NCBI GenBank assembly: GCA_039714495.1
Contig: JBDLJD010000003.1
Location: 1 to 60,915, forward strand
DNA length: 60,915 bases
Direction of reading: 5' to 3'
Source of the DNA: Thermodesulfobacteriota bacterium
Lineage (GTDB): Bacteria > Desulfobacterota > Desulfobacteria > Desulfobacterales > B30-G6
Shown: piece by piece, positions 3,947 through 50,606 of the stretch
Numbering within the stretch: the first letter of the stretch is position 1
Layout: every line of letters begins with the position of its first letter
Position numbers and translations under genes: made by a program
Notes under the pieces: generated by a model
The model's database searches: none
What the model was told of the DNA's origin: nothing
Seen by the model: only the letters and a program-made list of their open reading frames with translations

Positions 3947-4005
3947 CTATTTCTCCCCATATCTTGCAGACACAACGATTAAGATTTATTTAAATTGCGC
4001 CCAGG

Positions 4006-4842
4006 CTATTTGGCAGCCTTTGTGTAGTCGACGCCGTACCATTTTTTTGAGAGTGCCGATAACGTACCATCCGCATGCAGCTCTTTGATCATAGCCGCTA
4101 ACTTGTCATGGAACTCCTGATCACCTTTGTCGATGGCCACCGCAAGCGGTTCGTAGAATGCCGGTGCCCCGATGATCCGAAGCGGGTAGCCGTTCTTAAT
4201 GGCTTCTTGAATGGTGGGAACCGAACTTAACACGCCGTCGAGACGCACACCATCTCCAAGGCGCAGATCATCGAATGCGGTGTTCGAATCTTTATACGAT
4301 TTGATGTTTTTGGCCGTGGTGGTGACATCATATACGAACGCCGGTGCACCTTCGGCATCGATGACCAGGTCTTTTTTCATATAATTCTCAAATACGGTGG
4401 CGGTCGTAGCACCGATTCTCTTGCCGTTCAGTTCAGTCTTATCTTTGTATTTGGCGTCTTTGTGAACGACAAAACCGGCCGGTGTATAGTAATAGACACC
4501 CGGAAAACTCAGCTTTTTGGCGCGTGCCTTGGTGGGTGTCATGGAGCCGACCGAAATGTCCCAGCGCCCATGCCAATTGCCGGCGGTAAGGATGTCCCAC
4601 TCCGGGGTCTCGAATTTGATTTTGACGCCCAGACGCTTTGCTATTTCTCTGGCAACGGAAATATCGAACCCATCCCACTCTTTATTATCATTCAGGAAAG
4701 ATTGTGGCGGCCAGCCCCCGTATGTCGAGGCGACTAAAACTTTGTTGTTCATCACACGATCCAGGTTCTCTCCGGCCCAGGCGCCACTGGTTCCAATGGC
4801 AATAATTAGCACCACCATTGCGAGTTTAAATAATTGTTTCAT
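4006..4842 (-). CDS. Amino-acid ABC transporter substrate-binding protein (family 3)
   Basis: Signal peptide MKQLFKLAMVVLIIAIGTSGAWA. The ORF track starts at 4875, but ATG 4842 has a GGAGGA 7 nt upstream. The gene is adjacent to the permease and ATPase. Confidence 0.9.
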   Translation of the reverse strand: MKQLFKLAMVVLIIAIGTSGAWAGENLDRVMNNKVLVASTYGGWPPQSFLNDNKEWDGFDISVAREIAKRLGVKIKFETPEWDILTAGNWHGRWDISVGSMTPTKARAKKLSFPGVYYYTPAGFVVHKDAKYKDKTELNGKRIGATTATVFENYMKKDLVIDAEGAPAFVYDVTTTAKNIKSYKDSNTAFDDLRLGDGVRLDGVLSSVPTIQEAIKNGYPLRIIGAPAFYEPLAVAIDKGDQEFHDKLAAMIKELHADGTLSALSKKWYGVDYTKAAK

Positions 4843-4957
4843 GATAGTTCCTCCAATTAAATTAGATGTTAACATTAAATTGAGCTATGCCCCTTGCCAA
4901 TCTTTATTACACGCGTATTCATGTATACAAATCAAACAGAATCTCCGAAATATATAT

Positions 4958-5212
4958 TTTCGCATAGCGATAATATATATTTCTATGTGTATAGTAGTTG
5001 ATTTAGAAATGTCAACATTTTTTTAAAATAAGGACATCACATGCAATGCAATAGTTATAACTTTAAAAAACTATTGACAAGGCAATAATACCAACATAGA
5101 TATTAACCGTATGTTGAAATATAATTTCACATAGCGATAAATATAGTCAGTCAAGGCCACTCGACGTCAATGTCAAATAAACCCAAAACTAATTGGAGAG
5201 GTGATAAAAATC
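4958..5212. promoter_or_regulatory. Bidirectional control region, copy A (paralogue of 23049-23297)
   Basis: AT-rich divergent intergenic region. It holds the inverted repeat CGCATAG(4961-4967)-N15-CTATGTG(4983-4989) and the box TTCACATAGCGATA (5126-5139). It is collinear with a second copy 18 kb away. Confidence 0.55.
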
Positions 5213-6679
5213 ATGAAAAAATTTAATTACAAAATCGAATTGTACCAGTATCTAGCGGAAACCAAGGGTAAGCTTTTTGAAATGGCCAAGAAAATTCCCG
5301 GACAAATTGGCATGCCGGATAATTTGTTGGGAACCTTTGGATTGTCCGGCACAATCTCCGAATGTCATGGCCTCTTGCGTAAAGCAATCGCTGATGAAGT
5401 TGAGAACGGACAGCGGAAAGTTATCAATAGTGGCAATCTTGATTTTGAAATCAGGAAGTTGGTTAAAAGTTACTACGGGGATGAGTACGATGCGGTTGCG
5501 GCAAGCACCTGTGAGGCCTTGCTGATGGTCGGTTTTGATACGCTTTTTTCACCGCCGGTTGCAGGCCGTGGTGAAAATTACCGCGCCCGTTATATCTCCC
5601 CCTATGAAAGACATGCTCACCATCATGCCGGTTACGGCAGACCCTTTCCGCCACGATATAAAGACATATTCGCCGATCGTGGCGTTACTGCCGGTGAATA
5701 TGGTTTTATGGGTAAGCGCCTGAATAACCTGGATACGATACTCGTGCCAATGGTTGGCGGGCGCTATGATTGTCACGGATTGAAATACCACCCTTGTCAG
5801 CTTCTCAGCAATGTAGACGCAAAGGCTACCGCCGAAGCAATTGCTGCGACAGCCAAACGCCATGAAGCATCTATTTCTGGTTTCACATCTCTGGGGTACA
5901 CAAATCCATCATATGGATATGGCGAAGTTGATGAAACGGGCGTACCTGTACTCCAAAAGGAAATTTCTAAGATTGCTCAGCAATACAACGTACCCTATAT
6001 TATCGACAATGCTACAGCGATTCCTTTTCAATGCGTTGATATTCGCAAAAGTGAGGCTGACTTGATGATGTTCAGCATGGATAAGTCAAGTGGCGGTACC
6101 ACTTGCGGCCTTGCAATAGGTAAAGAAGAGAGCATCGTACCTATGGCCCGCGCAATGGGGACGGCAGGGCCGCGATTCGGTGGCCTCATCTCGCATGCAA
6201 AGGCGATGTACGTTCAAGTAGACCCCGGCAAGGAATCCCTGTTAGGGTTGATCGCGACACTCAAAATTCTCATTGAACGCCAGGATCAATTCCGCAAAAA
6301 CTGTGATATCTTTTATGAAATTGCAGTTGATGAGTTCTCTAAAATCGATCAAGGCATTATGGAAAATGTTGCCATTAATAAAGACTATGGAAGTAGTGGT
6401 GTTGAAATCGATTATCAAGGAACATGGCGTGATGGAAAAATGGGTTGGCCCATCTTTTCAATCGAAGATATGTATGCCGGCACCTCATTGATCCAGACTG
6501 GTCTTAAGATGATGGGTATCATCCCGTGCTTGGCATATGATGCAAATATCAAAATGTCATTAGGGCTTGGCACCACCGATGAAAACGGAGACATTATCGA
6601 AGACACCACGCGGTGGGGTGTTCGTGGTTTGGCCAAACTTGTTGAATTGCTTTGCCGGCATTGCGGGATGATGGATTAA
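5213..6679 (+). CDS. SelA-like / fold-type-I PLP-dependent enzyme (unknown specificity)
   Basis: The motif FSMDKSSGGTTCGLAIGKEE resembles the SelA/DgaE-type PLP-lysine motif FSGDKLLGGPQAGIIVGK. Start placed at ATG 5213 (MKKFNYK), which has a GGAGAGG upstream and is conserved in the duplicated stump at 23298. Confidence 0.7.
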   Translation: MKKFNYKIELYQYLAETKGKLFEMAKKIPGQIGMPDNLLGTFGLSGTISECHGLLRKAIADEVENGQRKVINSGNLDFEIRKLVKSYYGDEYDAVAASTCEALLMVGFDTLFSPPVAGRGENYRARYISPYERHAHHHAGYGRPFPPRYKDIFADRGVTAGEYGFMGKRLNNLDTILVPMVGGRYDCHGLKYHPCQLLSNVDAKATAEAIAATAKRHEASISGFTSLGYTNPSYGYGEVDETGVPVLQKEISKIAQQYNVPYIIDNATAIPFQCVDIRKSEADLMMFSMDKSSGGTTCGLAIGKEESIVPMARAMGTAGPRFGGLISHAKAMYVQVDPGKESLLGLIATLKILIERQDQFRKNCDIFYEIAVDEFSKIDQGIMENVAINKDYGSSGVEIDYQGTWRDGKMGWPIFSIEDMYAGTSLIQTGLKMMGIIPCLAYDANIKMSLGLGTTDENGDIIEDTTRWGVRGLAKLVELLCRHCGMMD

Positions 6680-6783
6680 ATGTTGGCTGCTTCAGTGAGG
6701 TCAATCGATGATGCATTGAAGGCGTATATGAAACATCGAAAGGCTGAAATTCAGGCGAACTCCTCTATAAAAAGCGAGTTATA

Positions 6784-41396: not shown

Positions 41397-42797
41397 TTGC
41401 ATCCTATCATGCATAGACAGAATTTCGGCAGGTTCTCTGCAGCCATGCTCATCCTATTGGCGGTTTTCCTGACCTGCACCGCAGCCCAGGCTGTTGCCGG
41501 GGCCGGAGAGGATCGGCCCAACCTTGTATTCATTCTGGGGGATAACCACAATGCCCGAACCATGGGGTGTGTCGGCCATCCTTTCATTAAAACGCCGGGC
41601 ATGGATCGCCTGGCAAGGGAGGGCATTCTTTTTGAAAACGCCTTCAATACCACCAGCCTCTGCAGCCCCTCGCGGGCCAGCATCCTGACCGGCGCCTATG
41701 CTAACAGGCACGGTGTGAAAAACAACCACACCCCCTGGACCGGGCAGATGAAGACCTTTCTGGCCCACCTGTCTGCCGGCGGGTATGCCACGGCCTTCAT
41801 CGGCAAATGGCATATGCCCGGGAAAGGGTTGCCAAAAATGCCTTTTCTGGATTTGTTCGTTTCCTATACCTACAGGGAAGGTCAGGGCGCATATTTCAAC
41901 TGCCCCATGATCGTCAATGGCCAAGAGGTTCGGTCGCGCGTTCCCTATATAACAGCCGAGGTCACGGATTACGCCATCGAGTTCATGCAGAAAGTGCAGG
42001 CGGAGCCGGAGGAAGGCCGCAGGCCTTTTTGCATCTACCTGTCCCACCGACCCGGCCATCCGCCCTTCAAGGCGCCGGATGGCATTGCCGGCATGTATGC
42101 TGAGGCAGATGTAAGCCGTGTGCTGCCGTCCCATGCCGATCCCCTGTGGTACGGCAAGACCAAGGGCAATGTATTCCAGGGGGTCATGATGGGTTCCTAT
42201 GAAAACAAGTACCGGAAGTATTGCGAAACATTGACGGCCATGGACCAGGACATCGTAAGACTTTTGGAAGAAATGGATGCCATGGGACTGGCAAAGAACA
42301 CGGTTGTGATCTACATGGGGGACAACGGCATGCAGTGGGGCACCCACGATTGCCACGGTATCCGTGAAGCATACGAGGATTCCCTGCGGCTGCCGCTGAT
42401 CGTGCGGGCTCCGGGCCTGATACCGGATCCCGGATCCAACAGACGGCAGATGGTGCTGAACATCGACATGGCACCCACGTTCTTGAGTTTGGCCGGGCTG
42501 GGTGTTTCCTCAGCCATGGATGGACAGAGCCTGGTCCCGGTCCTGAAAAACCCCGAGGCCCATGGCCGGGAAAATTTTCTCATCGAGTTCTGGCGCTATT
42601 TCCCGGAAAATACGCCGTCCTACACCGGCATCCGCACCGATCGGTTCAAATACATCGAATTCGCAAGAGGCCGCAGCCCCTGGCTGTTTGACCTGCTCAA
42701 CGACCCCCTTGAAATGCACAACCTGATGGGCACACCCCAAGGAGATAAAATCCTGCCTCAATTGAAAGACCGCCTTGCCCAACTGATTGCCCGGTAA
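41397..42797 (+). CDS. Sulfatase (Cys-type formylglycine motif)
   Basis: Signal-like N-terminus, NLVFILGDNHN, and the CSPSRASILTG sulfatase signature. An alternative ATG lies at 41409. Confidence 0.9.
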   Translation: MHPIMHRQNFGRFSAAMLILLAVFLTCTAAQAVAGAGEDRPNLVFILGDNHNARTMGCVGHPFIKTPGMDRLAREGILFENAFNTTSLCSPSRASILTGAYANRHGVKNNHTPWTGQMKTFLAHLSAGGYATAFIGKWHMPGKGLPKMPFLDLFVSYTYREGQGAYFNCPMIVNGQEVRSRVPYITAEVTDYAIEFMQKVQAEPEEGRRPFCIYLSHRPGHPPFKAPDGIAGMYAEADVSRVLPSHADPLWYGKTKGNVFQGVMMGSYENKYRKYCETLTAMDQDIVRLLEEMDAMGLAKNTVVIYMGDNGMQWGTHDCHGIREAYEDSLRLPLIVRAPGLIPDPGSNRRQMVLNIDMAPTFLSLAGLGVSSAMDGQSLVPVLKNPEAHGRENFLIEFWRYFPENTPSYTGIRTDRFKYIEFARGRSPWLFDLLNDPLEMHNLMGTPQGDKILPQLKDRLAQLIAR

Positions 42798-43145
42798 AGG
42801 GGTCTGCCCTTGACTCTTATTATTGAAAAATTGGATTCAAACATTTCAACCTTTTGATTTAAAGCCGTTTTTCAAATCTATTTTTAGTTTCGTTTGGAAA
42901 CGTTTGGAAAAATTTGACCTTGACGGGCACAAAATGGGCACAGAAAATCCTTTTTTTAGGTTGATACCCCACACAACAACCTTCTACTAAAACACTCCAA
43001 ATTCATATTCAGTATCAAAAGGTTAGTTTTTTTGTTACGATACCTTTTGTTATGCCTACGACAGGTTTCATCGTGCCTTCTCATATGAGAGCGGTCAATA
43101 GTCTGGCCGCATAAAAGTTTACTCATATAATGAGGAGGCAAAACG

Positions 43146-43280
43146 ATGACAGAATCGAGCGCAAAACAAACCGTAGTTCAATTCTTGGTACCCTTAGTGC
43201 TGAAACTGGCGGATCTTTTTCGAACACCCGAGGGAGAGGCCTATCCGACCATTCACGCAAAAGCTTGCCTGTCAGTGTGA
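43146..43280 (+). pseudogene. Short ORF with a strong SD; possibly the 5' remnant of a mobile-element gene
   Basis: AGGAGG lies 8 nt upstream. MTESSAKQTVVQFLVPLVLKLADLFRTPEGEAYPTIHAKACLSV* stops abruptly. The LFRTPEGEAYPTI pattern vaguely recalls N-termini of phage/plasmid primase-type proteins. Confidence 0.3.
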
Positions 43281-43451
43281 ATGGTTGGTCGGTCAACGAC
43301 CGAAACAGTAAGGACCCCGGGCATGCTCGGGGGGATCTATTAATATCATTCCTTTACAGATTTGAAAAAAGCTAGGGTATTATGGGACCGGCATTTTTCT
43401 ATTTCGTTCGATGAAATGCCGAACCAGGGCGGGTACCTACAGTTAGCCTTG

Positions 43452-43683
43452 CTGATACCATTCCTGATATTAGCACCGACCATATGTGTCTGGGTGGTTG
43501 CTTTTTTGTATTATCAATCCAAGTTTGTTCAAGATTGCTTCATTCTAGAATTTACAAAGAAATCTTCATAATTCGACATCTGCCGAAATGTAGGTGACTT
43601 CATCATTCTTGGCGGTACTCCATAGGTGGTTCTGTAACAGAGCTCAAAATAAACGTGATATCAAATAGTTGACATAATCATCC
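43452..43683 (+). repeat. Direct repeat DR1 (paralogue of 48354-48587)
   Basis: Collinear blocks are shared with DR2: CTGATACCA, GTTGCTTTTTTGTA(T/C)TATCAATCC, TGCTTCA(T/A)TCTAGAATTTACA(A/G)AGAAATCT, TAGGTG, TGTAACA, ACGTGAT, CATAATCAT. Confidence 0.65.
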
Positions 43684-43920
43684 TGTAACCTTTCTTTTGC
43701 CACGAGACTGATTTTTGCCGCTTTCATTTGTTAATCAATACAAACCTGTATCGATGGAAATGAAAAATAGCAGGCATTGCAATTGAGATTGGATTTGAGC
43801 TTATTAAGGGAAATCTTTTTAATGGATATCCCTTTTTGCATTTTATAGAGAAAGTTGTTACCTGTATAGAATAAACAGAATTCGTATCGCGCATATTTTT
43901 CTATTACCAATGTCGGATTC

Positions 43921-44535
43921 ATGGTGAAGAATAAAAAAACTAAAATCATTGAATTCCCATCCAAATCAGGAACGTCCTCACCAACCGTTACCAAAGGTGG
44001 AATAGAAAATTTTAACGATTTTGAAGAATATGAGGATGACGAATACTTTTATCTTTTAGAGGAAAAAGATTATCAAGGTCTAATTAAATATTGTTTAGAC
44101 CGAGCATCTGACAATCCTGAGGATCTTTATGCAAAAGCCCACCTTGGAAAGGCCTATATTTTAAACGGCAACTATGAAAAAGCTCTAGGCTATTTAACAG
44201 AATGTCATCAACAATATCCTGATATTGATGAATACCAGCATTTATTGTTGGATGTATTATTTGGGATGGGAATGACTGAAGATGATTATGATTGGTCCAA
44301 AAAGCCTGTCGTATTACGACTTAACAAAGATATTTTCGATGCCTGCTATTCGTATTTGAGATCCAAAAGAAAGCCCAGATCAATATACGATATCCATAAC
44401 GAATTTGTTTTTAAAGGGTATGTAGCTTTCACGCCTGAAGACCTATTATTAGAACTCTTGGATGATCAAAGATTCATTGCTGATGACCCTGAAGACCAAG
44501 AATTGTTACGTGTAGTTCGTAAAAAGGATCTATAA
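43921..44535 (+). CDS. Hypothetical protein (acidic N-terminus, TPR-like middle)
   Basis: 204-aa ORF in the AT-rich island. The LYAKAHLGKAYILNGNYEKALGYLTECHQQYP segment is TPR-like. Confidence 0.55.
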   Translation: MVKNKKTKIIEFPSKSGTSSPTVTKGGIENFNDFEEYEDDEYFYLLEEKDYQGLIKYCLDRASDNPEDLYAKAHLGKAYILNGNYEKALGYLTECHQQYPDIDEYQHLLLDVLFGMGMTEDDYDWSKKPVVLRLNKDIFDACYSYLRSKRKPRSIYDIHNEFVFKGYVAFTPEDLLLELLDDQRFIADDPEDQELLRVVRKKDL

Positions 44536-44555
44536 ATATTGGGAAAGGATAATTA

Positions 44556-44774
44556 GTGGATTTATTTGACCAGTACCTGCAACGGAGCCAGGAAATCATT
44601 GGTGATCGAACTCGGGAAGAGATGCGGTATGATAAGGAAGTTTTGAGATGGTTACGTAAAGGGAAAAAATTCAAAAGGCAATTGAAAGAGCCAATAAAAA
44701 ATATCCAAAAGAGGCCCTCGAAGTTAATGAAAAAACGATCAATGACGTTGCCGCTCACTACGATTATTTATTAG
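44556..44774 (+). CDS. Small hypothetical ORF, possibly frameshifted at an A6 run
   Basis: GTG start. After A6 (44664-44669) the -1 frame stays open to TGA 44804-44806 and reads more protein-like. Confidence 0.3.
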   Translation: MDLFDQYLQRSQEIIGDRTREEMRYDKEVLRWLRKGKKFKRQLKEPIKNIQKRPSKLMKKRSMTLPLTTIIY

Positions 44775-45115
44775 AGCATGAAAATATTATGAAAAAGATG
44801 CATTGATGAGATCCCAACACATCATTTCAGATATCAAGAGGACGATCTATTTTGACGGATTGTCCATTTTTTGCATTTCGTCGGAAATGGGCTATCTGTA
44901 ATGGATATTATTGACCCTTAGGTGGTTGATATGTGATGGTATCTCAGCTTTTTTGGCGAGATGATAACCTGAACTTATCTCCAACTATCACAAGTTGCAG
45001 CTATAAAAACATTCTTGGTGGATTCCTGATAAAATTCAGACCGAGATGGTATCTACATATCTTAGGCTGAGCAACATAATAGTTTTTTAGATATCCTCGT
45101 CGAGAATCTCTTTTC

Positions 45116-45808
45116 ATGCAAACTTTCATTCTTAATACCTGGGAAAAAATAAGGTACCAATATCGTGGAGTTGGTTTCGCGAAAACGATAATTAAAATAG
45201 CATATAAAATCTTATCTCCTATATATAGGCACGATACTTATTATATAGCTGTGGAAACCATTCACACTGACATACCAGGAGCCAATAAAATAAATAATAG
45301 CGAGATTGAATGTGTTGTGCATGAAAAGTCAGATAGATTTCGATTGTGCGAATACAAAACAATTCCTTCAATTCCAATGAATAAAATAAAAAAATTACTA
45401 GAAAATCCTAACAGCATCAGTATCATAGCATTTCGGCAAGATAGAATTGACCCTGAGAAAAAGATTGTTGGGTTTCGGATATGTGAACCAGGTATATTCT
45501 ATGCTCCCGGTGTTAAATTCAGAGTTTCCCCTGCGATCCTGGCCATCATCCATACTGAGGTTTTACCAAAGTACAGAGGCCAAAAAATCAACGCTATCTT
45601 ATGGAAAGCCACTTATGAGATTTGCCAACAAAGAGAGTTTACAAAAGCCTATGGTTTAATATCAATACATAATTATCAGTCTTTAAAATCGCACGGAAAA
45701 TTAGGTGAAATTAAGGCCGAGAAGAAGTTTGAACTATTCTCTTTTGCTTTCGGGCTTCACAAAAGATATACACCTCCAAATGAAGTTAAAAAATTGTTAG
45801 AATCATAA
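45116..45808 (+). CDS. GNAT-like N-acetyltransferase (tentative)
   Basis: 230-aa ORF. HTEVLPKYRGQKINAILWKATYEICQQ resembles GNAT motif A (Q/R-x-x-G-x-G/A-like). Confidence 0.5.
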   Translation: MQTFILNTWEKIRYQYRGVGFAKTIIKIAYKILSPIYRHDTYYIAVETIHTDIPGANKINNSEIECVVHEKSDRFRLCEYKTIPSIPMNKIKKLLENPNSISIIAFRQDRIDPEKKIVGFRICEPGIFYAPGVKFRVSPAILAIIHTEVLPKYRGQKINAILWKATYEICQQREFTKAYGLISIHNYQSLKSHGKLGEIKAEKKFELFSFAFGLHKRYTPPNEVKKLLES

Positions 45809-46403
45809 GTCTCAATCTGCCCATTGCCGATGTCTCCAATATAAATAAAGATATCAAGACCTTTAAATATTGCCGGTGTTTAAAAATTATCACCACCGGC
45901 AGAATCTTTCATCGGCAAGCGTTTCCGTGATACCGTGGCGATGACCAGATGGTGTCTTATATTTATCCAATTTATCGGATAGTTGAGATCGTTATATAAT
46001 AGAAATACAAAGAGTTATGCCTGCCAGCATAGCACAGAAAAAATATATTATCGCTCCATGTATCGGTACTGCGAAGATCCGGAATCTTGACCTAATCAGC
46101 CGATTCATGTATACTGATCATATTGCATATAAATCCCACCTGATCTGATGCTGGATCTCCATATTTTAGCCTGACCTGACCTCAACCAGGATCTGCTCTT
46201 ATCTTTCTAAGAAGTATCATCTTCTTTAAACCGTACTTTGCTGAAACGAAGGTGATCGACATGCCCAATGAAATAAAGTCACAAGCAAACTAAGAGCCTT
46301 CCTATCTGGGGCCGCCAAAAGTAACTCCATACTGATGTCTTTTGATGAAGTCTTAGGTGATATGAAATTTTGCCACTATGAAAAAGAAGATTGATTGAAC
46401 TTA

Positions 46404-46432
46404 GCCTAAAAATCAAGATTTAGGCATTTTTT
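46404..46432 (+). terminator. Intrinsic-terminator-like hairpin in the leader of the protease gene
   Basis: GCCTAAA (46404-46410) pairs with TTTAGGC (46419-46425) and is followed by A-T6. It ends 4 nt before the GGGAGG SD, which starts at 46437. Confidence 0.5.
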
Positions 46433-46449
46433 GAATTGGGAGGTGCTAT

Positions 46450-48030
46450 ATGAAATTTTTTTCCAGACGCTACTTTAAAATATTCATTGTGTATGTCGGG
46501 ATTATATTTTCACTTTCACTTGTCCAATGGGTGGGAACCGGGGCTTTTCTCAAATCAACTTTAGCTGAATCTTCAGATATTACCATCGGTTTCTACAAAG
46601 ACAATCCTGGCATCGGAAAAGCAATTGAAGTCCAAAACAGGTATAAGGCACAATTGATAGGTATTCCAGGTGTTGTGGGGATTGGTACCGGAATCGGCCC
46701 AAACGGTCACGCAGTTATAAGAGTATTTACACGCAGGACCGGTTTGCCTGGAATCCCTGAAAAACTTGATGATATGCCCGTGCATGTAAAGGTAACAGGG
46801 GACTTTATCGCTTTGGATGATCCTGCTGCGAGATTTGATAGACCTGTTCCCATAGGTGTCTCAACTGGTCATCCTGACATTACCGCCGGAACACTTGGTG
46901 CCCGCGTAATAGATGGAGACGGCGATGTTTACGCATTAAGCAACAACCATGTTTATGCTAACATCAATAGCGCAAGTTTGGGTGATCCTGCACTTCAGCC
47001 AGGTTCATATGATGATGGTGTTTATCCTGATGACCAAATAGGAGAACTTTGCGGTTTTAATCCGATTGATTTCTCTGTTTTTGGCTCCAATACAATGGAT
47101 GCTGCGATTGCATGTACCACCCCCAACGAGGTGGGAAATGCGACCTTGATGGGGGGGTATGGGATGCCCAGCTCCCAAATATTTAATGATTCTGATCCTG
47201 TTGACGGGGTTTTTGACAATTTGAATACGCTGCTACTGCAACCGGTTCAGAAATTCGGGAGAACGACCGGCCTAACACATGGTGAAATCACAGAAATTAA
47301 CGTAACGACTATGGTCTGCTACGCATATTGTGATAATATATTGTTCGCCGAATATGCATGGTTTGACGACCAGATTGCAATCAGCAGCGTTACCAGCGAT
47401 GCTTTTAGCTTGGGGGGTGACTCAGGCTCTCTGGTTGTAACTGATGACAGCTATAATAATCCTGTCGGTTTATTATTCGCTGGCAGTTCGACGACCACAC
47501 TGGCGAATCGAATTGACTTGGTACTCAATCAGTTCGAAGTGAGTATAGACGGCTCACAGCCAACTGTACCTGGTGATGAAATATGCAATAACGGCACTGA
47601 TGATGATTCAGATGATTTAATTGACTGCGAAGATTCGGATTGTTTTGAGGATCCTGCTTGCTTAAATACCGAGTCTGGGAATTTGTGCTTTGATAAAGAA
47701 GACAATGATCAAGATCTCGCAATAGACTGTTATGACACTGACTGCAAAGATGAATGTGCAACTGAATACTGTTTTAAGGGGATAGCAGATGAGAATTGTA
47801 ATCCCCAAAAAGACGGTCCATTATGTCCTGATTGTTTAGGCACCACTCAACCCGATACTGAAATAGAATGCGGTAACAATATTGATGATGACGCCGATGA
47901 TTTAACTGATTGCGATGATCCCGACTGTTTTAGTAGTCCAAATTGTGATGATTGCCAGCCGAAAGGTTCTTTCTGCGACATGGATGGAGATTGTTGTTCT
48001 GGAAAGTGCCGAGGGGGAAAATGTAGATAA
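46450..48030 (+). CDS. Secreted S1 (chymotrypsin-fold) serine protease with a Cys-rich acidic C-terminal extension
   Basis: Signal/TM segment FKIFIVYVGIIFSLSL. Candidate catalytic triad: LSNNHVYAN (His), NTMDAAIA (Asp) and GGDSGSLVV (Ser). From 47584 there are three C..DDD.DD..DC.D.DC repeats and a terminal six-Cys motif. Confidence 0.8.
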   Translation: MKFFSRRYFKIFIVYVGIIFSLSLVQWVGTGAFLKSTLAESSDITIGFYKDNPGIGKAIEVQNRYKAQLIGIPGVVGIGTGIGPNGHAVIRVFTRRTGLPGIPEKLDDMPVHVKVTGDFIALDDPAARFDRPVPIGVSTGHPDITAGTLGARVIDGDGDVYALSNNHVYANINSASLGDPALQPGSYDDGVYPDDQIGELCGFNPIDFSVFGSNTMDAAIACTTPNEVGNATLMGGYGMPSSQIFNDSDPVDGVFDNLNTLLLQPVQKFGRTTGLTHGEITEINVTTMVCYAYCDNILFAEYAWFDDQIAISSVTSDAFSLGGDSGSLVVTDDSYNNPVGLLFAGSSTTTLANRIDLVLNQFEVSIDGSQPTVPGDEICNNGTDDDSDDLIDCEDSDCFEDPACLNTESGNLCFDKEDNDQDLAIDCYDTDCKDECATEYCFKGIADENCNPQKDGPLCPDCLGTTQPDTEIECGNNIDDDADDLTDCDDPDCFSSPNCDDCQPKGSFCDMDGDCCSGKCRGGKCR

Positions 48031-48093
48031 TACGATTGTGCAATGTCCGTAACAAGATAATTAATTTATGAAAATAACAGCAGGGTCAGAAAT

Positions 48094-48279
48094 CAAGCCG
48101 TTCGCTTAAAGTGTTGAAAACTCCTTAACACCTGCTATTTTATCGTGTAATATTAGGAATTTTCATGCAATAAAGCCTTTACACGTTGTGAAAGATTTCT
48201 TCCAGAAAGAAAAGGACCGCTGACACCCATTCTGCGGTCCTTTTTTTACTTTACTTCAACACTTTAAGCGAACGGCTTG
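48094..48279. mobile_element. MITE-like element: perfect 25-bp terminal inverted repeats flanked by a 10-bp direct duplication
   Basis: TIR-L is CAAGCCGTTCGCTTAAAGTGTTGAA (48094-48118). TIR-R (48255-48279) is its exact reverse complement. The flanking GGTCAGAAAT occurs at 48084-48093 and 48280-48289. There is no ORF inside. Confidence 0.7.
48211..48247 (+). terminator. Rho-independent terminator carried inside the MITE
   Basis: AAAGGACCGC (48211-48220) pairs with GCGGTCCTTT (48234-48243) and runs into a T-tract. It lies ~180 nt after the protease stop codon. Confidence 0.65.
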
Positions 48280-48353
48280 GGTCAGAAATGGCCCTGCTTT
48301 CTTTGTTGGTCGAGTTGCGATGGCTCCAACTAATCGTTATTCCACGAAAATTA

Positions 48354-48587
48354 CTGATACCATATATGCTATCAGCACCGGCCATCGATAACCGGGCAGT
48401 TGCTTTTTTGTACTATCAATCCTTGCCCGATGAGGAATGCTTCAATCTAGAATTTACAGAGAAATCTCCTTACTTCGACCAACGTAGAAATATAGTTGAT
48501 TACATCAATACCGGCAGAACCCCTTAGGTGTTGATTGTGTAACAAAGCATAATATATACGTGATTTCAAAAAGTTATCATAATCATG
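48354..48587 (+). repeat. Direct repeat DR2 (paralogue of 43452-43683)
   Basis: See DR1. By eye, roughly three quarters of positions are identical over ~235 nt, in the same orientation. Confidence 0.65.
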
Positions 48588-48794
48588 GTGAAATGATAAG
48601 AAAGCCAGGATTTTTAAATTGTGGTAAATTCAATCGTTAATCAAAAGGTCCTTAAACCAGCAGTCAGCCTGCCTATTCGGTCATAAGTCTGGACAACTGG
48701 ATGCATACTTGCCGTTGATCGTCTTCCTTTCCGATATTGAATCTGAACACATTTCTGACAACCGATATAGAAAAAATGCACGACAATTTTTTTC

Positions 48795-48868
48795 TTGACA
48801 TATCCTATAAAAATGGTAGGAAAGAATCCTATTGAATTAGTAGGGTTATATCCTACTAAAAAATAGGA
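48795..48868 (+). promoter_or_regulatory. Candidate hmc promoter/operator region with three tandem TCCTA-N8/9-TAGGA palindromes
   Basis: TTGACA lies at 48795-48800. The palindromes are TCCTA(48803)-N9-TAGGA(48821), TCCTA(48827)-N9-TAGGG(48845) and TCCTA(48851)-N8-TAGGA(48868). The region is ~125 nt upstream of hmcA. Confidence 0.4.
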
Positions 48869-48992
48869 CATAAGCCCTGCTGACGCCTGTGCCGCACGAT
48901 CATGTTTAGACTGCAGCCATAAACCAGGGTGCTTCTGCTCCCCGCACCCTGTTCAGCTGCCGGAAACCTGTTAGACTCCAGAGGATAAAACC

Positions 48993-50606
48993 ATGGCAAA
49001 GAGAGCTACCCGTCAATGGCGAATCAATGCAGTTTTGGCCATTATTCTGATGATACTCCTGTGCGGTGTGTCCAGCGTCTTCAGCAGCACTGCCACCGAT
49101 TCCCGGGCGCTGGATGTCGTTTACATCGATCTGCCCCATGTCCCGGGCAACGATAAAATGCCGGGGGTGCCCTTTCCGCACGACCGACACACCCGGGCTC
49201 GGGAAAATAGCAAGGACTGTAGCGCCTGCCATCTTCAGCAGAAAGAGCGTTTTGTCTTCAGGTTCAAAAGGCTGATCGACGGCACGCCTGATGCGGACAT
49301 GGCCGTGTATCACGAGAATTGTGTTGCCTGCCACGCAGAAACCAAAAGCGCCGGTAAGACGTCAGGTCCCCTGGACGGCGACTGCCGCTCCTGCCACACG
49401 ACCGTTTCCGGCGATGCACCGGCCTGGCAACCGATCCGCTTTGACAAGTCCCTGCACTTTCGCCACGTATCGTCCAAAGCCATACGGCCGGGCAACATGT
49501 ACGATGACACCAACTGCAGCGCCTGCCACCATATTTATGATGAGACAATCCAGAAAACTGTCCGCAAAAACGGTACGGAGGAGAGCTGCTTTTACTGCCA
49601 TAAACCCCAAAAGACGGAAAGGTCGCCGTCCATCCGCTGGGCATCGCATGCCTCCTGCGTCAGCTGCCATCAGAGCCTCAAAACCCGCGTCCGGAAAACC
49701 GGGCCCGTGGAGTGTGCCGGGTGCCACGATGCGGCGGTCCAGCAGCAGATCGAGGTGGTAGAAAATATTCCGCGCCTGGAACGCAAGCAGCCCGACACTG
49801 TGCTTTTAGCCAGTTGGATGTCTGCAGACGGCGGTTCTGCGGAAGCCATGAAAAAGGTTATGCAGCCGGTGGCGTTCAATCATGTAGTGCATGAATTTAA
49901 GGCCGACAGCTGCCGGGCTTGTCACCACCAGACCCTGAAAAATTGTGCCCAATGCCACACGGAAACCGGGGATGAAAAAGGCGGCGGGGTGCAGCTGGCC
50001 CGGGCCATGCACAACAGCGTATCAACACACAGCTGCATTGGATGCCACAGGCAGGTAACAATGACGAAAGATTGTGCCGGCTGCCATGCAGCCATGCCCC
50101 AGAAACGGTTTTCTCAGCTTGCCTGCGCCCAATGTCATGCCGTGGACCGTGAAGCCATGGGCCCCTTTCCCATGGCGGCGGAAGAGCGCACGGCTGTGGC
50201 AGAGAACAACCTCAATTCACGCCAGAGAGCCTTCATGACCCTTGCGGATGAGCACATACCTGAAATCGTAAAAATCGACGGCATGAAGGACAAATATGAG
50301 GCCGTGGATTTTCCCCACCGGCAGATTGTGCGGGCTATTTTTACCAGAATTAAAGAAAACAAGATGGCGGCCTATTTTCACGGCAACGATGTCACCCTGT
50401 GCGCCGGTTGCCACCACAACGCCCCGGCCACGCTCAATCCGGCAAGGTGTGCCGCGTGCCATGGAAAGGCTTTTACCAATGATGAGGATGGACGGCCGGG
50501 ACTCAAGGGGGCCTACCACGGTCAGTGCATGGCCTGCCATGAGGCGATGGGCATTGAAGAACCGGCATCCACTGATTGCATCAAATGCCATAAAGAGAAA
50601 GGATGA
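48993..50606 (+). CDS. hmcA: 16-haem high-molecular-weight cytochrome c
   Basis: Signal peptide, and I count 16 CxxCH motifs in 537 aa. It is the first gene of an Hmc-type six-gene set. Confidence 0.9.
   Translation: MAKRATRQWRINAVLAIILMILLCGVSSVFSSTATDSRALDVVYIDLPHVPGNDKMPGVPFPHDRHTRARENSKDCSACHLQQKERFVFRFKRLIDGTPDADMAVYHENCVACHAETKSAGKTSGPLDGDCRSCHTTVSGDAPAWQPIRFDKSLHFRHVSSKAIRPGNMYDDTNCSACHHIYDETIQKTVRKNGTEESCFYCHKPQKTERSPSIRWASHASCVSCHQSLKTRVRKTGPVECAGCHDAAVQQQIEVVENIPRLERKQPDTVLLASWMSADGGSAEAMKKVMQPVAFNHVVHEFKADSCRACHHQTLKNCAQCHTETGDEKGGGVQLARAMHNSVSTHSCIGCHRQVTMTKDCAGCHAAMPQKRFSQLACAQCHAVDREAMGPFPMAAEERTAVAENNLNSRQRAFMTLADEHIPEIVKIDGMKDKYEAVDFPHRQIVRAIFTRIKENKMAAYFHGNDVTLCAGCHHNAPATLNPARCAACHGKAFTNDEDGRPGLKGAYHGQCMACHEAMGIEEPASTDCIKCHKEKG

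Follow-up and report, generated by a model that had tools for sequence, protein, structure and literature searches.

What does a bacterial protease do with a tail that resembles an animal toxin? This question is raised by one gene in a 60,915-nucleotide stretch of DNA from a Thermodesulfobacteriota bacterium (GenBank assembly GCA_039714495.1, contig JBDLJD010000003.1, positions 1 to 60,915), which we analyzed as a whole and refer to as the window. The gene, a complete open reading frame (ORF) of 526 amino acids at 46450..48030 on the plus strand in the ORF list, encodes a NAL1-type serine protease followed by a cysteine-rich, acidic tail. An earlier reading of the DNA (the original prediction) had given exactly this ORF and had described its product as a secreted S1 protease, fused to three acidic Cys repeats and a toxin-like Cys knot in a low-GC island, that could display, or autoprocess and release, a small disulfide-rich peptide. 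The reading toward which we lean, by a modest amount, is that the protein is an exported NAL1-type endopeptidase whose noncatalytic tail is a calcium-stiffened stalk with a knottin-like binding head that stays attached.

The N-terminal two thirds of the protein are very probably a chymotrypsin-fold (Clan PA) serine protease of the NAL1 type. The protease domain, delimited by Pfam, Foldseek, and profile alignment, comprises residues 130 to 366 (46837..47547, plus strand) and contains the triad residues H167 in LSNNHVYAN, D217 in NTMDAAIA, and S325 in GGDSGS, whose codons are read from the sequence at 46948-46950, 47098-47100, and 47422-47424 on the plus strand; all three are invariant in 120 of 120 aligned homologues. 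With hmmscan at E <= 1, the sole Pfam match was Nal1_C (PF25819) over residues 257-348, with 28.0 bits versus a gathering cut-off of 26.1, and no match was obtained to Trypsin (PF00089) or Trypsin_2 (PF13365). When the full-length AlphaFold2 (AF2) model, a low-confidence model built from 18 aligned sequences (mean predicted local distance difference test score, pLDDT, 59.8), was searched with Foldseek, the best match was rice NARROW LEAF 1 (NAL1) at E 2.5e-11, followed by a second tier of streptogrisin and alpha-lytic proteases at E 5e-6 to 1e-4. A profile of the family compared with the PDB matched nine different sequences of NAL1 (E 1.9e-5 to 1.1e-4), and the alignment placed LSNNHVYAN on TNHHVAVD and GGDSGS on GDSGS of NAL1, where the NHHV and GDSGS motifs are taken to contain H234 and S385 of the published NAL1 triad (H234/D291/S385). 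Of the earlier S1 assignment, the chymotrypsin fold with the triad it named is borne out by Foldseek and by the invariance of the three residues, while membership in the classical S1 (Pfam Trypsin) group is replaced by the NAL1 type.

The likeness to NAL1 (7Y77, 8PME, and 8PMM) extends from the chymotrypsin-type double barrel and the order of His, Asp, and Ser to a small alpha/beta domain that lies N-terminal of the protease domain in both proteins. In contrast, NAL1 is located inside plant cells, where it assembles into a hexameric cage that binds ATP (NAL1 papers), whereas the window protein has a predicted export signal and a Cys-rich tail, and its identity to NAL1 is 16-21%. The bacterial S1E proteases (streptogrisin A and B, alpha-lytic protease, and the Lysobacter enzymes L1 and L5), which make up the second structural tier, are similar in that they are chymotrypsin-fold enzymes of bacteria, which are secreted and synthesized with an accessory domain at the N terminus; however, the N-domain of the window protein has no sequence kinship to the alpha-lytic pro region, and the S1E enzymes have no Cys-rich tail. 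More than 6000 proteins contain a homologous protease domain. Species-representative genomes that encode it belong to Gemmatimonadota, Desulfobacterota, Nitrospinota, Ignavibacteria, Bacteroidales, Planctomycetota, Vibrio, Oceanimonas, and other groups, and the databases name these relatives after their tail domains ("PKD domain-containing", "CARDB domain-containing") or list them as hypothetical.

At the N terminus, residues 1 to 40 (46450..46569, plus strand) consist of a basic n-region (K2, R6, R7, and K10) and a long hydrophobic stretch, with a helix at residues 4-28 in the AF2 prediction. This region may be a signal peptide or an N-terminal signal anchor, with a possible cleavage site at the end of TLA39, and the basic and hydrophobic character of this segment is what makes us regard the protease as putatively exported, the "secreted" of the original prediction. 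Residues 52 to 120 (46603..46809, plus strand) form an alpha/beta N-domain, delimited by the AF2 model and the length of the Foldseek alignments, and are the best-modeled part of the protein (pLDDT 82-90). The Foldseek alignments to NAL1 cover 363-410 columns, longer than the protease domain alone, and on this basis the N-domain is probably the counterpart of the domain that precedes the NAL1 protease domain, a unit of about 84 residues that binds ATP and makes trimer contacts (PMC12012508).

The tail begins with acidic repeats. The three Cys repeats quoted in the original prediction were located on the plus strand at 47584..47661 (repeat 1, C379-C404), 47686..47757 (repeat 2, C413-C436, in which the fourth Cys is shifted and common to the next module), and 47869..47946 (repeat 3, C474-C499), and a pattern made from them has only these three matches in the six-frame translation of the whole window. 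Repeats 1 and 3 share 77% DNA identity over 64 nucleotides (nt), and we therefore regard them as products of duplication rather than chance. The NCBIfam model NF033662, "acidic double-disulfide repeat", aligned with three stretches at 39.7 bits versus a curated cut-off of 41. Repeat 3 gives the best match to the C-rich domain of human teneurin-4 (7PLP), with E 0.0097 in phmmer and E 0.00098 with a profile. In the crystal structure of that domain, N844 together with eight acidic side chains binds three calcium ions, and disulfides 1-3, 2-5, and 4-6 link the cysteines.

We mapped each repeat onto 7PLP, registered on the first Cys of each repeat. In each repeat, Asp, Glu, or Asn occupies eight of the nine positions that provide calcium side-chain ligands, C+14 and C+19 are Cys in all three, and C+25 is Cys in repeats 1 and 3; hence, C838, C852, and C857 of teneurin have counterparts throughout and C863 has one in repeats 1 and 3. 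Residue C858 is replaced by F399, K433, or F494, and C869 has no counterpart in any of the three, so none of the window repeats has the full six-Cys, three-disulfide set of 7PLP. The window repeats thus resemble the teneurin C-rich domain in eight of nine ligand positions and in the cysteines of two of its three disulfides; they have four Cys rather than six because the C858-C869 pair is missing, and they occur as three copies in one tail versus one copy in teneurin. Judged by sequence, the repeats are a four-Cys form of the teneurin C-rich calcium-binding motif, and the conservation of the ligand positions makes calcium binding by the acidic repeats likely.

The repeats also fit the consensus ExxCx(D/N)xxDx(D/E)xDxxxDCxxx(D/E)C that Tucker et al. 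described for teneurins, a diatom glucanase, algal gametolysins, and MopE, and those authors aligned the teneurin C-rich core to the copper motif of MopE. As in the algal proteins of Tucker et al., the motif is attached here to an enzyme, in this case one predicted to be secreted. The original prediction had compared the repeats with LDL-A, thrombospondin type 3 (TSP3), and MopE motifs. This comparison was a good one because the repeats fit the Tucker et al. consensus and the 7PLP ligand mapping, which place them in the class of calcium-binding, teneurin C-rich, TSP3-like, and MopE-like motifs; the specific Pfam models for TSP3 (PF02412), LDL-A (PF00057), and MopE (PF11617), however, gave no match at E <= 1 to the whole protein or to the tail. 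Acidic repeats of this kind are common in large bacterial exoproteins. In metagenomes we observed up to 28 copies per protein in very large exoproteins (loci L085-L164), many of which end in a conserved "...YYLVVDADKPGSEGGVILQLSG" domain resembling a pre-peptidase C-terminal domain, and one small lipoprotein-like protein carries the acidic repeats alone.

Between repeats 2 and 3 lies a module of four to five Cys (C436/C441, C450, C459, and C462) at 47755..47838 on the plus strand, which was recognized by Cys conservation and does not figure in the original prediction. Its consensus is CFKGxxDGxCNPKKDGxxCPDC, and its cysteines are invariant in 11 tails, two of them of nonprotease proteins. No significant relatives of this module were found in the PDB or Pfam.

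The tail ends with a six-Cys, knottin-like module, CQPKGSFCDMDGDCCSGKCRGGKC plus R526, at 47953..48027 on the plus strand, directly before the stop codon (48028-48030). Its framework is C-x6-C-x5-CC-x3-C-x4-C followed by R and the stop, and all 16 aligned modules have the six Cys and two Gly in common. When a profile of the module was compared with the PDB, 31 of 31 matches at E <= 10 were knottins, nearly all of them inhibitor cystine knot (ICK) toxins; maurocalcine and omega-atracotoxin Hv1a were the top matches (about 2.5e-4, with a best E of 2.5e-4), followed by imperatoxin A and omega-conotoxins, MVIIA among them. Matches in Pfam were likewise nearly all to toxin or knottin families, the best at E 6.8e-6, and lay below the gathering scores. 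The toxin-like Cys knot of the original prediction is therefore recovered in framework and in sequence resemblance. Short Cys-rich motifs can converge.

Like the scorpion calcins, omega-atracotoxin Hv1a, and omega-conotoxin MVIIA, the module has the order C-C-CC-C-C with near-identical loop lengths. Unlike them, it is the end domain of a 526-residue bacterial enzyme, whereas the toxins are free animal peptides made with a propeptide, and the Pfam scores of the window module set stay below every gathering cut-off. The likeness to ICK toxins may be convergent. A true ICK fold of the terminal module is slightly favored over other folds, and the cysteines would then be paired 1-4, 2-5, and 3-6, the third of these disulfides passing through the ring.

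The module is widespread. An exhaustive hidden Markov model search of 1.84 billion representatives found it in 437 clusters (50% identity) at E <= 0.001, and most of the best matches are proteins composed of tandem copies, with a median of six. About one third of the best matches have a lipobox-like N terminus and some have twin-arginine signals; the contigs that we checked carry typical bacterial genes, and one cluster is recorded from a Deltaproteobacteria metagenome-assembled genome (MAG). Several module proteins exceed the gathering score of Pfam Conotoxin_I2. All are annotated as hypothetical, and there is no curated family for the bacterial knot. According to the KNOTTIN database paper, bacterial knottin sequences exist and none has an experimental structure; our literature search turned up no work dealing with NF033662, bacterial NAL1 homologues, or characterized bacterial knottins. 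As a side observation, one large set of unnamed bacterial proteins (P0122-P0269) consists of 3-11 tandem knottin-like modules, and the gene for one of them (P0123, at 4001-6760 of locus L167) adjoins a gene for an extracytoplasmic function (ECF) sigma factor.

How is the tail distributed among proteases and other proteins? The terminal module occurs in 17 of the best 120 protease homologues, and the tails of these 17 contain 14-30 Cys, with a varying number of acidic repeats (1 to 3) and other modules and a constant terminal knot. A variable repeat number with a constant knot is as expected for a spacer and a head. In the remaining homologues, the same position is taken by PKD, FN3, or CARDB domains or by short tails. 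The cassette, whole or in partial form, is also found on unrelated exoproteins: its acidic repeat, mid-module, and terminal knot are all present in P0241 (with fn3 and TSP3-like repeats) and in P0255; the subtilase C-terminal fragment P0263, which has a MopE motif, combines an acidic repeat with the knot and lacks the mid-module; and in P0259, a CARDB protein, an acidic-repeat-like stretch separates two knots. The full architecture is rare and unnamed: about 20 such proteins were found in 5.8 billion clusters, and the 80 best genome loci include it in a single species representative (a Nitrospinaceae MAG, locus L005). Searches with the tail alone were less productive, a homologue search yielding one short protein and a tail-profile search two, and the index seems unsuited to low-complexity Cys/Asp sequence; a metagenome scan with the tail profile returned mostly other acidic-repeat proteins and one further knot-bearing protease (L134). 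No source names the whole architecture, its relatives being hypothetical or named for other tail domains, and in this respect the original prediction of an undescribed architecture stands, except that the acidic repeat was already named (NF033662). The repeats are also the only part of the C terminus that falls in a named family, so that the whole C terminus is not a single domain of known type.

Because the cassette sits at the position of the PKD, FN3, and CARDB domains of the paralogues and also occurs on unrelated exoproteins, we interpret it as a portable targeting module. According to this model, an N-terminal signal peptide or anchor would take the protease across the cytoplasmic membrane, the alpha/beta N-domain (residues 52-120) precedes the catalytic domain (residues 130-366), and the last 156 residues would form a noncatalytic, disulfide-rich cassette. 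In this cassette, the three acidic four-Cys repeats would each bind calcium through Asp, Asn, and Glu and stiffen the tail into a stalk; the cassette further contains the one module of four to five Cys, and the six-Cys module with the ICK framework at the extreme C terminus would be the binding head. The knot would remain attached and keep the enzyme bound to a substrate, to a partner, or to the cell surface. For a binding role of the knot or tail as such, we put the chances at about even. The model has a parallel in secreted proteases with C-terminal PKD, PPC, FN3, or CARDB domains, such as deseasin MCP-01, and the tail would play the part that PKD, FN3, and CARDB domains play in the paralogues. 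PKD, PPC, FN3, and CARDB domains are noncatalytic and bind or swell insoluble substrates. They differ from the window tail in that they are beta-sandwich domains, whereas the tail is made of mini-modules of about 25 residues that are predicted to be stabilized by disulfides and calcium.

Several observations weigh against this interpretation. The NF033662 score is 1.3 bits under its cut-off, and a Foldseek comparison of the tail-only AF2 model, which was built from 10 aligned sequences (mean pLDDT about 60), with 7PLP was nonsignificant (E about 1). Both AF2 models are of low confidence, with a mean pLDDT of 60, and because the pLDDT of the knot is below 50 in the full-length as well as the tail-only run, the knotted topology has to be regarded as putative. 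No conserved neighbor gene indicates a substrate or partner of the tail in eight related genomic contexts. Finally, a 16-haem cytochrome gene near the protease gene suggests a sulfate-reducing anaerobe, in which eleven extracellular disulfides would be demanding.

Of the two possibilities in the original prediction, display is the better half. Release would mean that the protease, or another enzyme, cuts off the C-terminal knot and that the free disulfide-rich peptide acts as a toxin, an antimicrobial, or a signal. The knot indeed resembles free ICK toxins in framework and sequence, and in the proteases to which it is fused it is always at the extreme C terminus and ends in C-[KR]. We nonetheless give release little credence, since the linker between the preceding Cys and the knot has only two residues in the window protein (1-12 in the relatives), lies between modules predicted to be disulfide-locked, and contains no conserved cleavage motif or basic site, and since the same cassette is present on fn3 and CARDB proteins without a protease domain, the knot also occurs within internal tandem arrays, and the paralogues carry ordinary binding domains at the same position. 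A bolder proposal, that the knot belongs to a genuine prokaryotic ICK family of at least 437 clusters and serves as a portable, ultra-stable binding or toxic head that the protease fusions may deliver or set free as a bioactive peptide, is in our view unlikely; if true, it could bear on the origin of the animal, fungal, and plant knottin scaffolds. The Lys or Arg that is always the C-terminal residue would also suit a latency module, in which the knot or tail folds back and blocks the active site like the knottin inhibitors until calcium, a partner, or removal of the tail relieves it. Knottin trypsin inhibitors do appear among the weak matches (SOTI-III, 4aoq, E 0.48; Pfam Tryp_inh for two members), and the family seems to use extra regulatory pieces, with a free-standing copy of the N-domain encoded downstream in 56 of 91 loci. 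These inhibitor matches are, however, far weaker than the matches to ion-channel toxins, the cassette is also found on nonproteases, and a knot is not needed for regulation in most of the family, whose members end in PKD, FN3, or CARDB domains or have no tail. We consider latency rather improbable.

The 22 Cys of the tail could alternatively bind metal ions, like those of metallothionein or MopE, instead of forming disulfides in a reducing, sulfidic habitat, and the tail would then serve as an appendage for metal binding or sensing. The alignment of the teneurin core with the MopE copper motif by Tucker et al. points in this direction, as do the Cu-binding_MopE Pfam matches in three relatives (P0058, P0119, and P0263) and the adjoining gene for a 16-haem HmcA-like cytochrome, which is typical of sulfate reducers. 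The solved teneurin C-rich domain, however, holds calcium on carboxylates and has its cysteines in disulfides; the Cys spacing and invariant Gly of the knot fit disulfide knots, not metallothioneins; and the window protein itself has no MopE match in Pfam, all of which leaves a metal-thiolate tail very improbable. A role as a sorting or docking tag has only a small chance of being correct. Here the cassette would be read by a dedicated export or attachment system, like the type IX secretion system C-terminal domain (T9SS CTD) or PEP-CTERM, or would plug into a scaffold as dockerins do, and its strictly C-terminal place on several unrelated exoenzymes, its predicted calcium binding (as in dockerins), and the location of some relatives beside a minor-pilin/PilY1 cluster are compatible with such a role. 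Yet no match to PEP-CTERM, T9SS CTD, LPXTG, GlyGly-CTERM, or MYXO-CTERM was found in NCBIfam or Pfam, the last 25 residues are polar and Cys-rich with neither a terminal hydrophobic helix nor a basic tail, the eight contexts contain no conserved sortase-like or scaffold gene, and the knot is also found internally in the tandem arrays. An attached stalk and binding head continues to be the reading that we favor.

Each component of the protein has a known relative, while the combination is rare and unnamed. It joins a very large bacterial protease family (more than 6000 members in many phyla), kin to the plant regulator NAL1 and with a small partner gene at most loci, to a bacterial form of the teneurin C-rich calcium module that is used as a repeat, as in stalks on exoenzymes, and to a bacterial knottin-like domain that is widespread in metagenomes and has no name, structure, or function. 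If the terminal module is a true cystine knot, it would provide a genetically tractable bacterial source of knottin scaffolds and a test case for what such a module binds; should it be no more than a binding tail, the protein would be an ordinary secreted protease with an unusual anchor.

The small partner gene is a 66-70-residue ORF located 3' of the protease gene on the same strand (for example, L170 2398-2610, L173 2871-3083, and L174 3103-3315), and it is present in 56 of 91 family loci irrespective of the type of tail. It begins about 65 nt after the protease gene in the five loci with gene calls. Its product, which has no Pfam match, is paralogous to the N-domain of the protease itself (BLASTP E 2e-5) and might act in free-standing form as an inhibitor, a chaperone, or an assembly partner. 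The partner ORF is absent from 48031-48290 of the window. Where the relatives have this gene, the window contains a perfect 25-nt inverted repeat, CAAGCCGTTCGCTTAAAGTGTTGAA (48094-48118 and 48255-48279), that encloses 136 nt and within them a terminator-like hairpin, AAAGGACCGC...GCGGTCCTTTTTTT (48204..48250, plus strand, an inverted repeat read from the sequence) 3' of the protease gene; the 25-nt sequence has no further copy in the window and no Rfam match.

Within the low-GC segment, the neighbors of the protease gene are a GNAT gene and a TPR protein gene, and outside it are genes for a sulfatase and for the 16-haem HmcA-like cytochrome. We excluded a conserved operon with the GNAT and TPR genes since these neighbors are absent in all eight related contexts, and the knot-bearing genes in general share no common operon. 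In a knot-bearing subgroup with 30 Cys (L001, L004, and L169), the protease gene diverges from an adjoining sigma-54-dependent response regulator gene and minor-pilin cluster. L001 and L004 have both PilY1 and PilX; the L169 contig is short, and only the regulator and a PpdB-like gene are visible on it. This neighborhood may reflect lineage synteny or a functional link to pili. Another knot-bearing subgroup is found near a transposase. Because relatives adjoin sigma-54 activators, a sigma-54 promoter was sought; there is no plus-strand match 5' of the window protease gene, and in the window as a whole matches are no more frequent than expected by chance.

The low-GC island of the original prediction was confirmed by composition. 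It extends from 42800 to 48990 (strand not applicable) and contains the TPR protein, GNAT, and protease genes, with a GC content of 0.39 versus 0.50 in the remaining window; the GC content at third codon positions is 0.37 for the protease gene versus 0.66-0.70 for the sulfatase and cytochrome genes on either side. The segment is bracketed by direct repeats about 290 nt long, at 43449-43738 and 48351-48644, which are 73-88% identical and lie about 4.9 kb apart. The right copy falls within an intact 79-residue ORF (48288-48527), and the left copy encodes the same protein with an internal stop in the reading frame and is therefore probably a pseudogene. No integrase, transposase, or tRNA was found near these repeats, Rfam gave no match in 42700-49100, and neither the protease, the acidic repeats, nor the knot occurs again elsewhere in the window.

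The ribosome-binding site of the 526-residue ORF is strong, a Shine-Dalgarno sequence, GGGAGGTG, being read from the sequence at 46438..46445 on the plus strand, 4 nt 5' of the ATG. A second terminator-like hairpin with a T-run lies at 46404-46425, just 25 nt 5' of the start codon and thus between the protease gene and the best sigma-70-like promoter match (46087-46115); it could be the end of an upstream unit or an attenuator. Directly after the low-GC segment, the HmcA-like cytochrome gene (48993-50606, 16 CxxCH motifs) is followed by several ORFs on the same strand to about 56300, an arrangement suggestive of an Hmc-type redox operon in a Desulfobacterota-like sulfate reducer.

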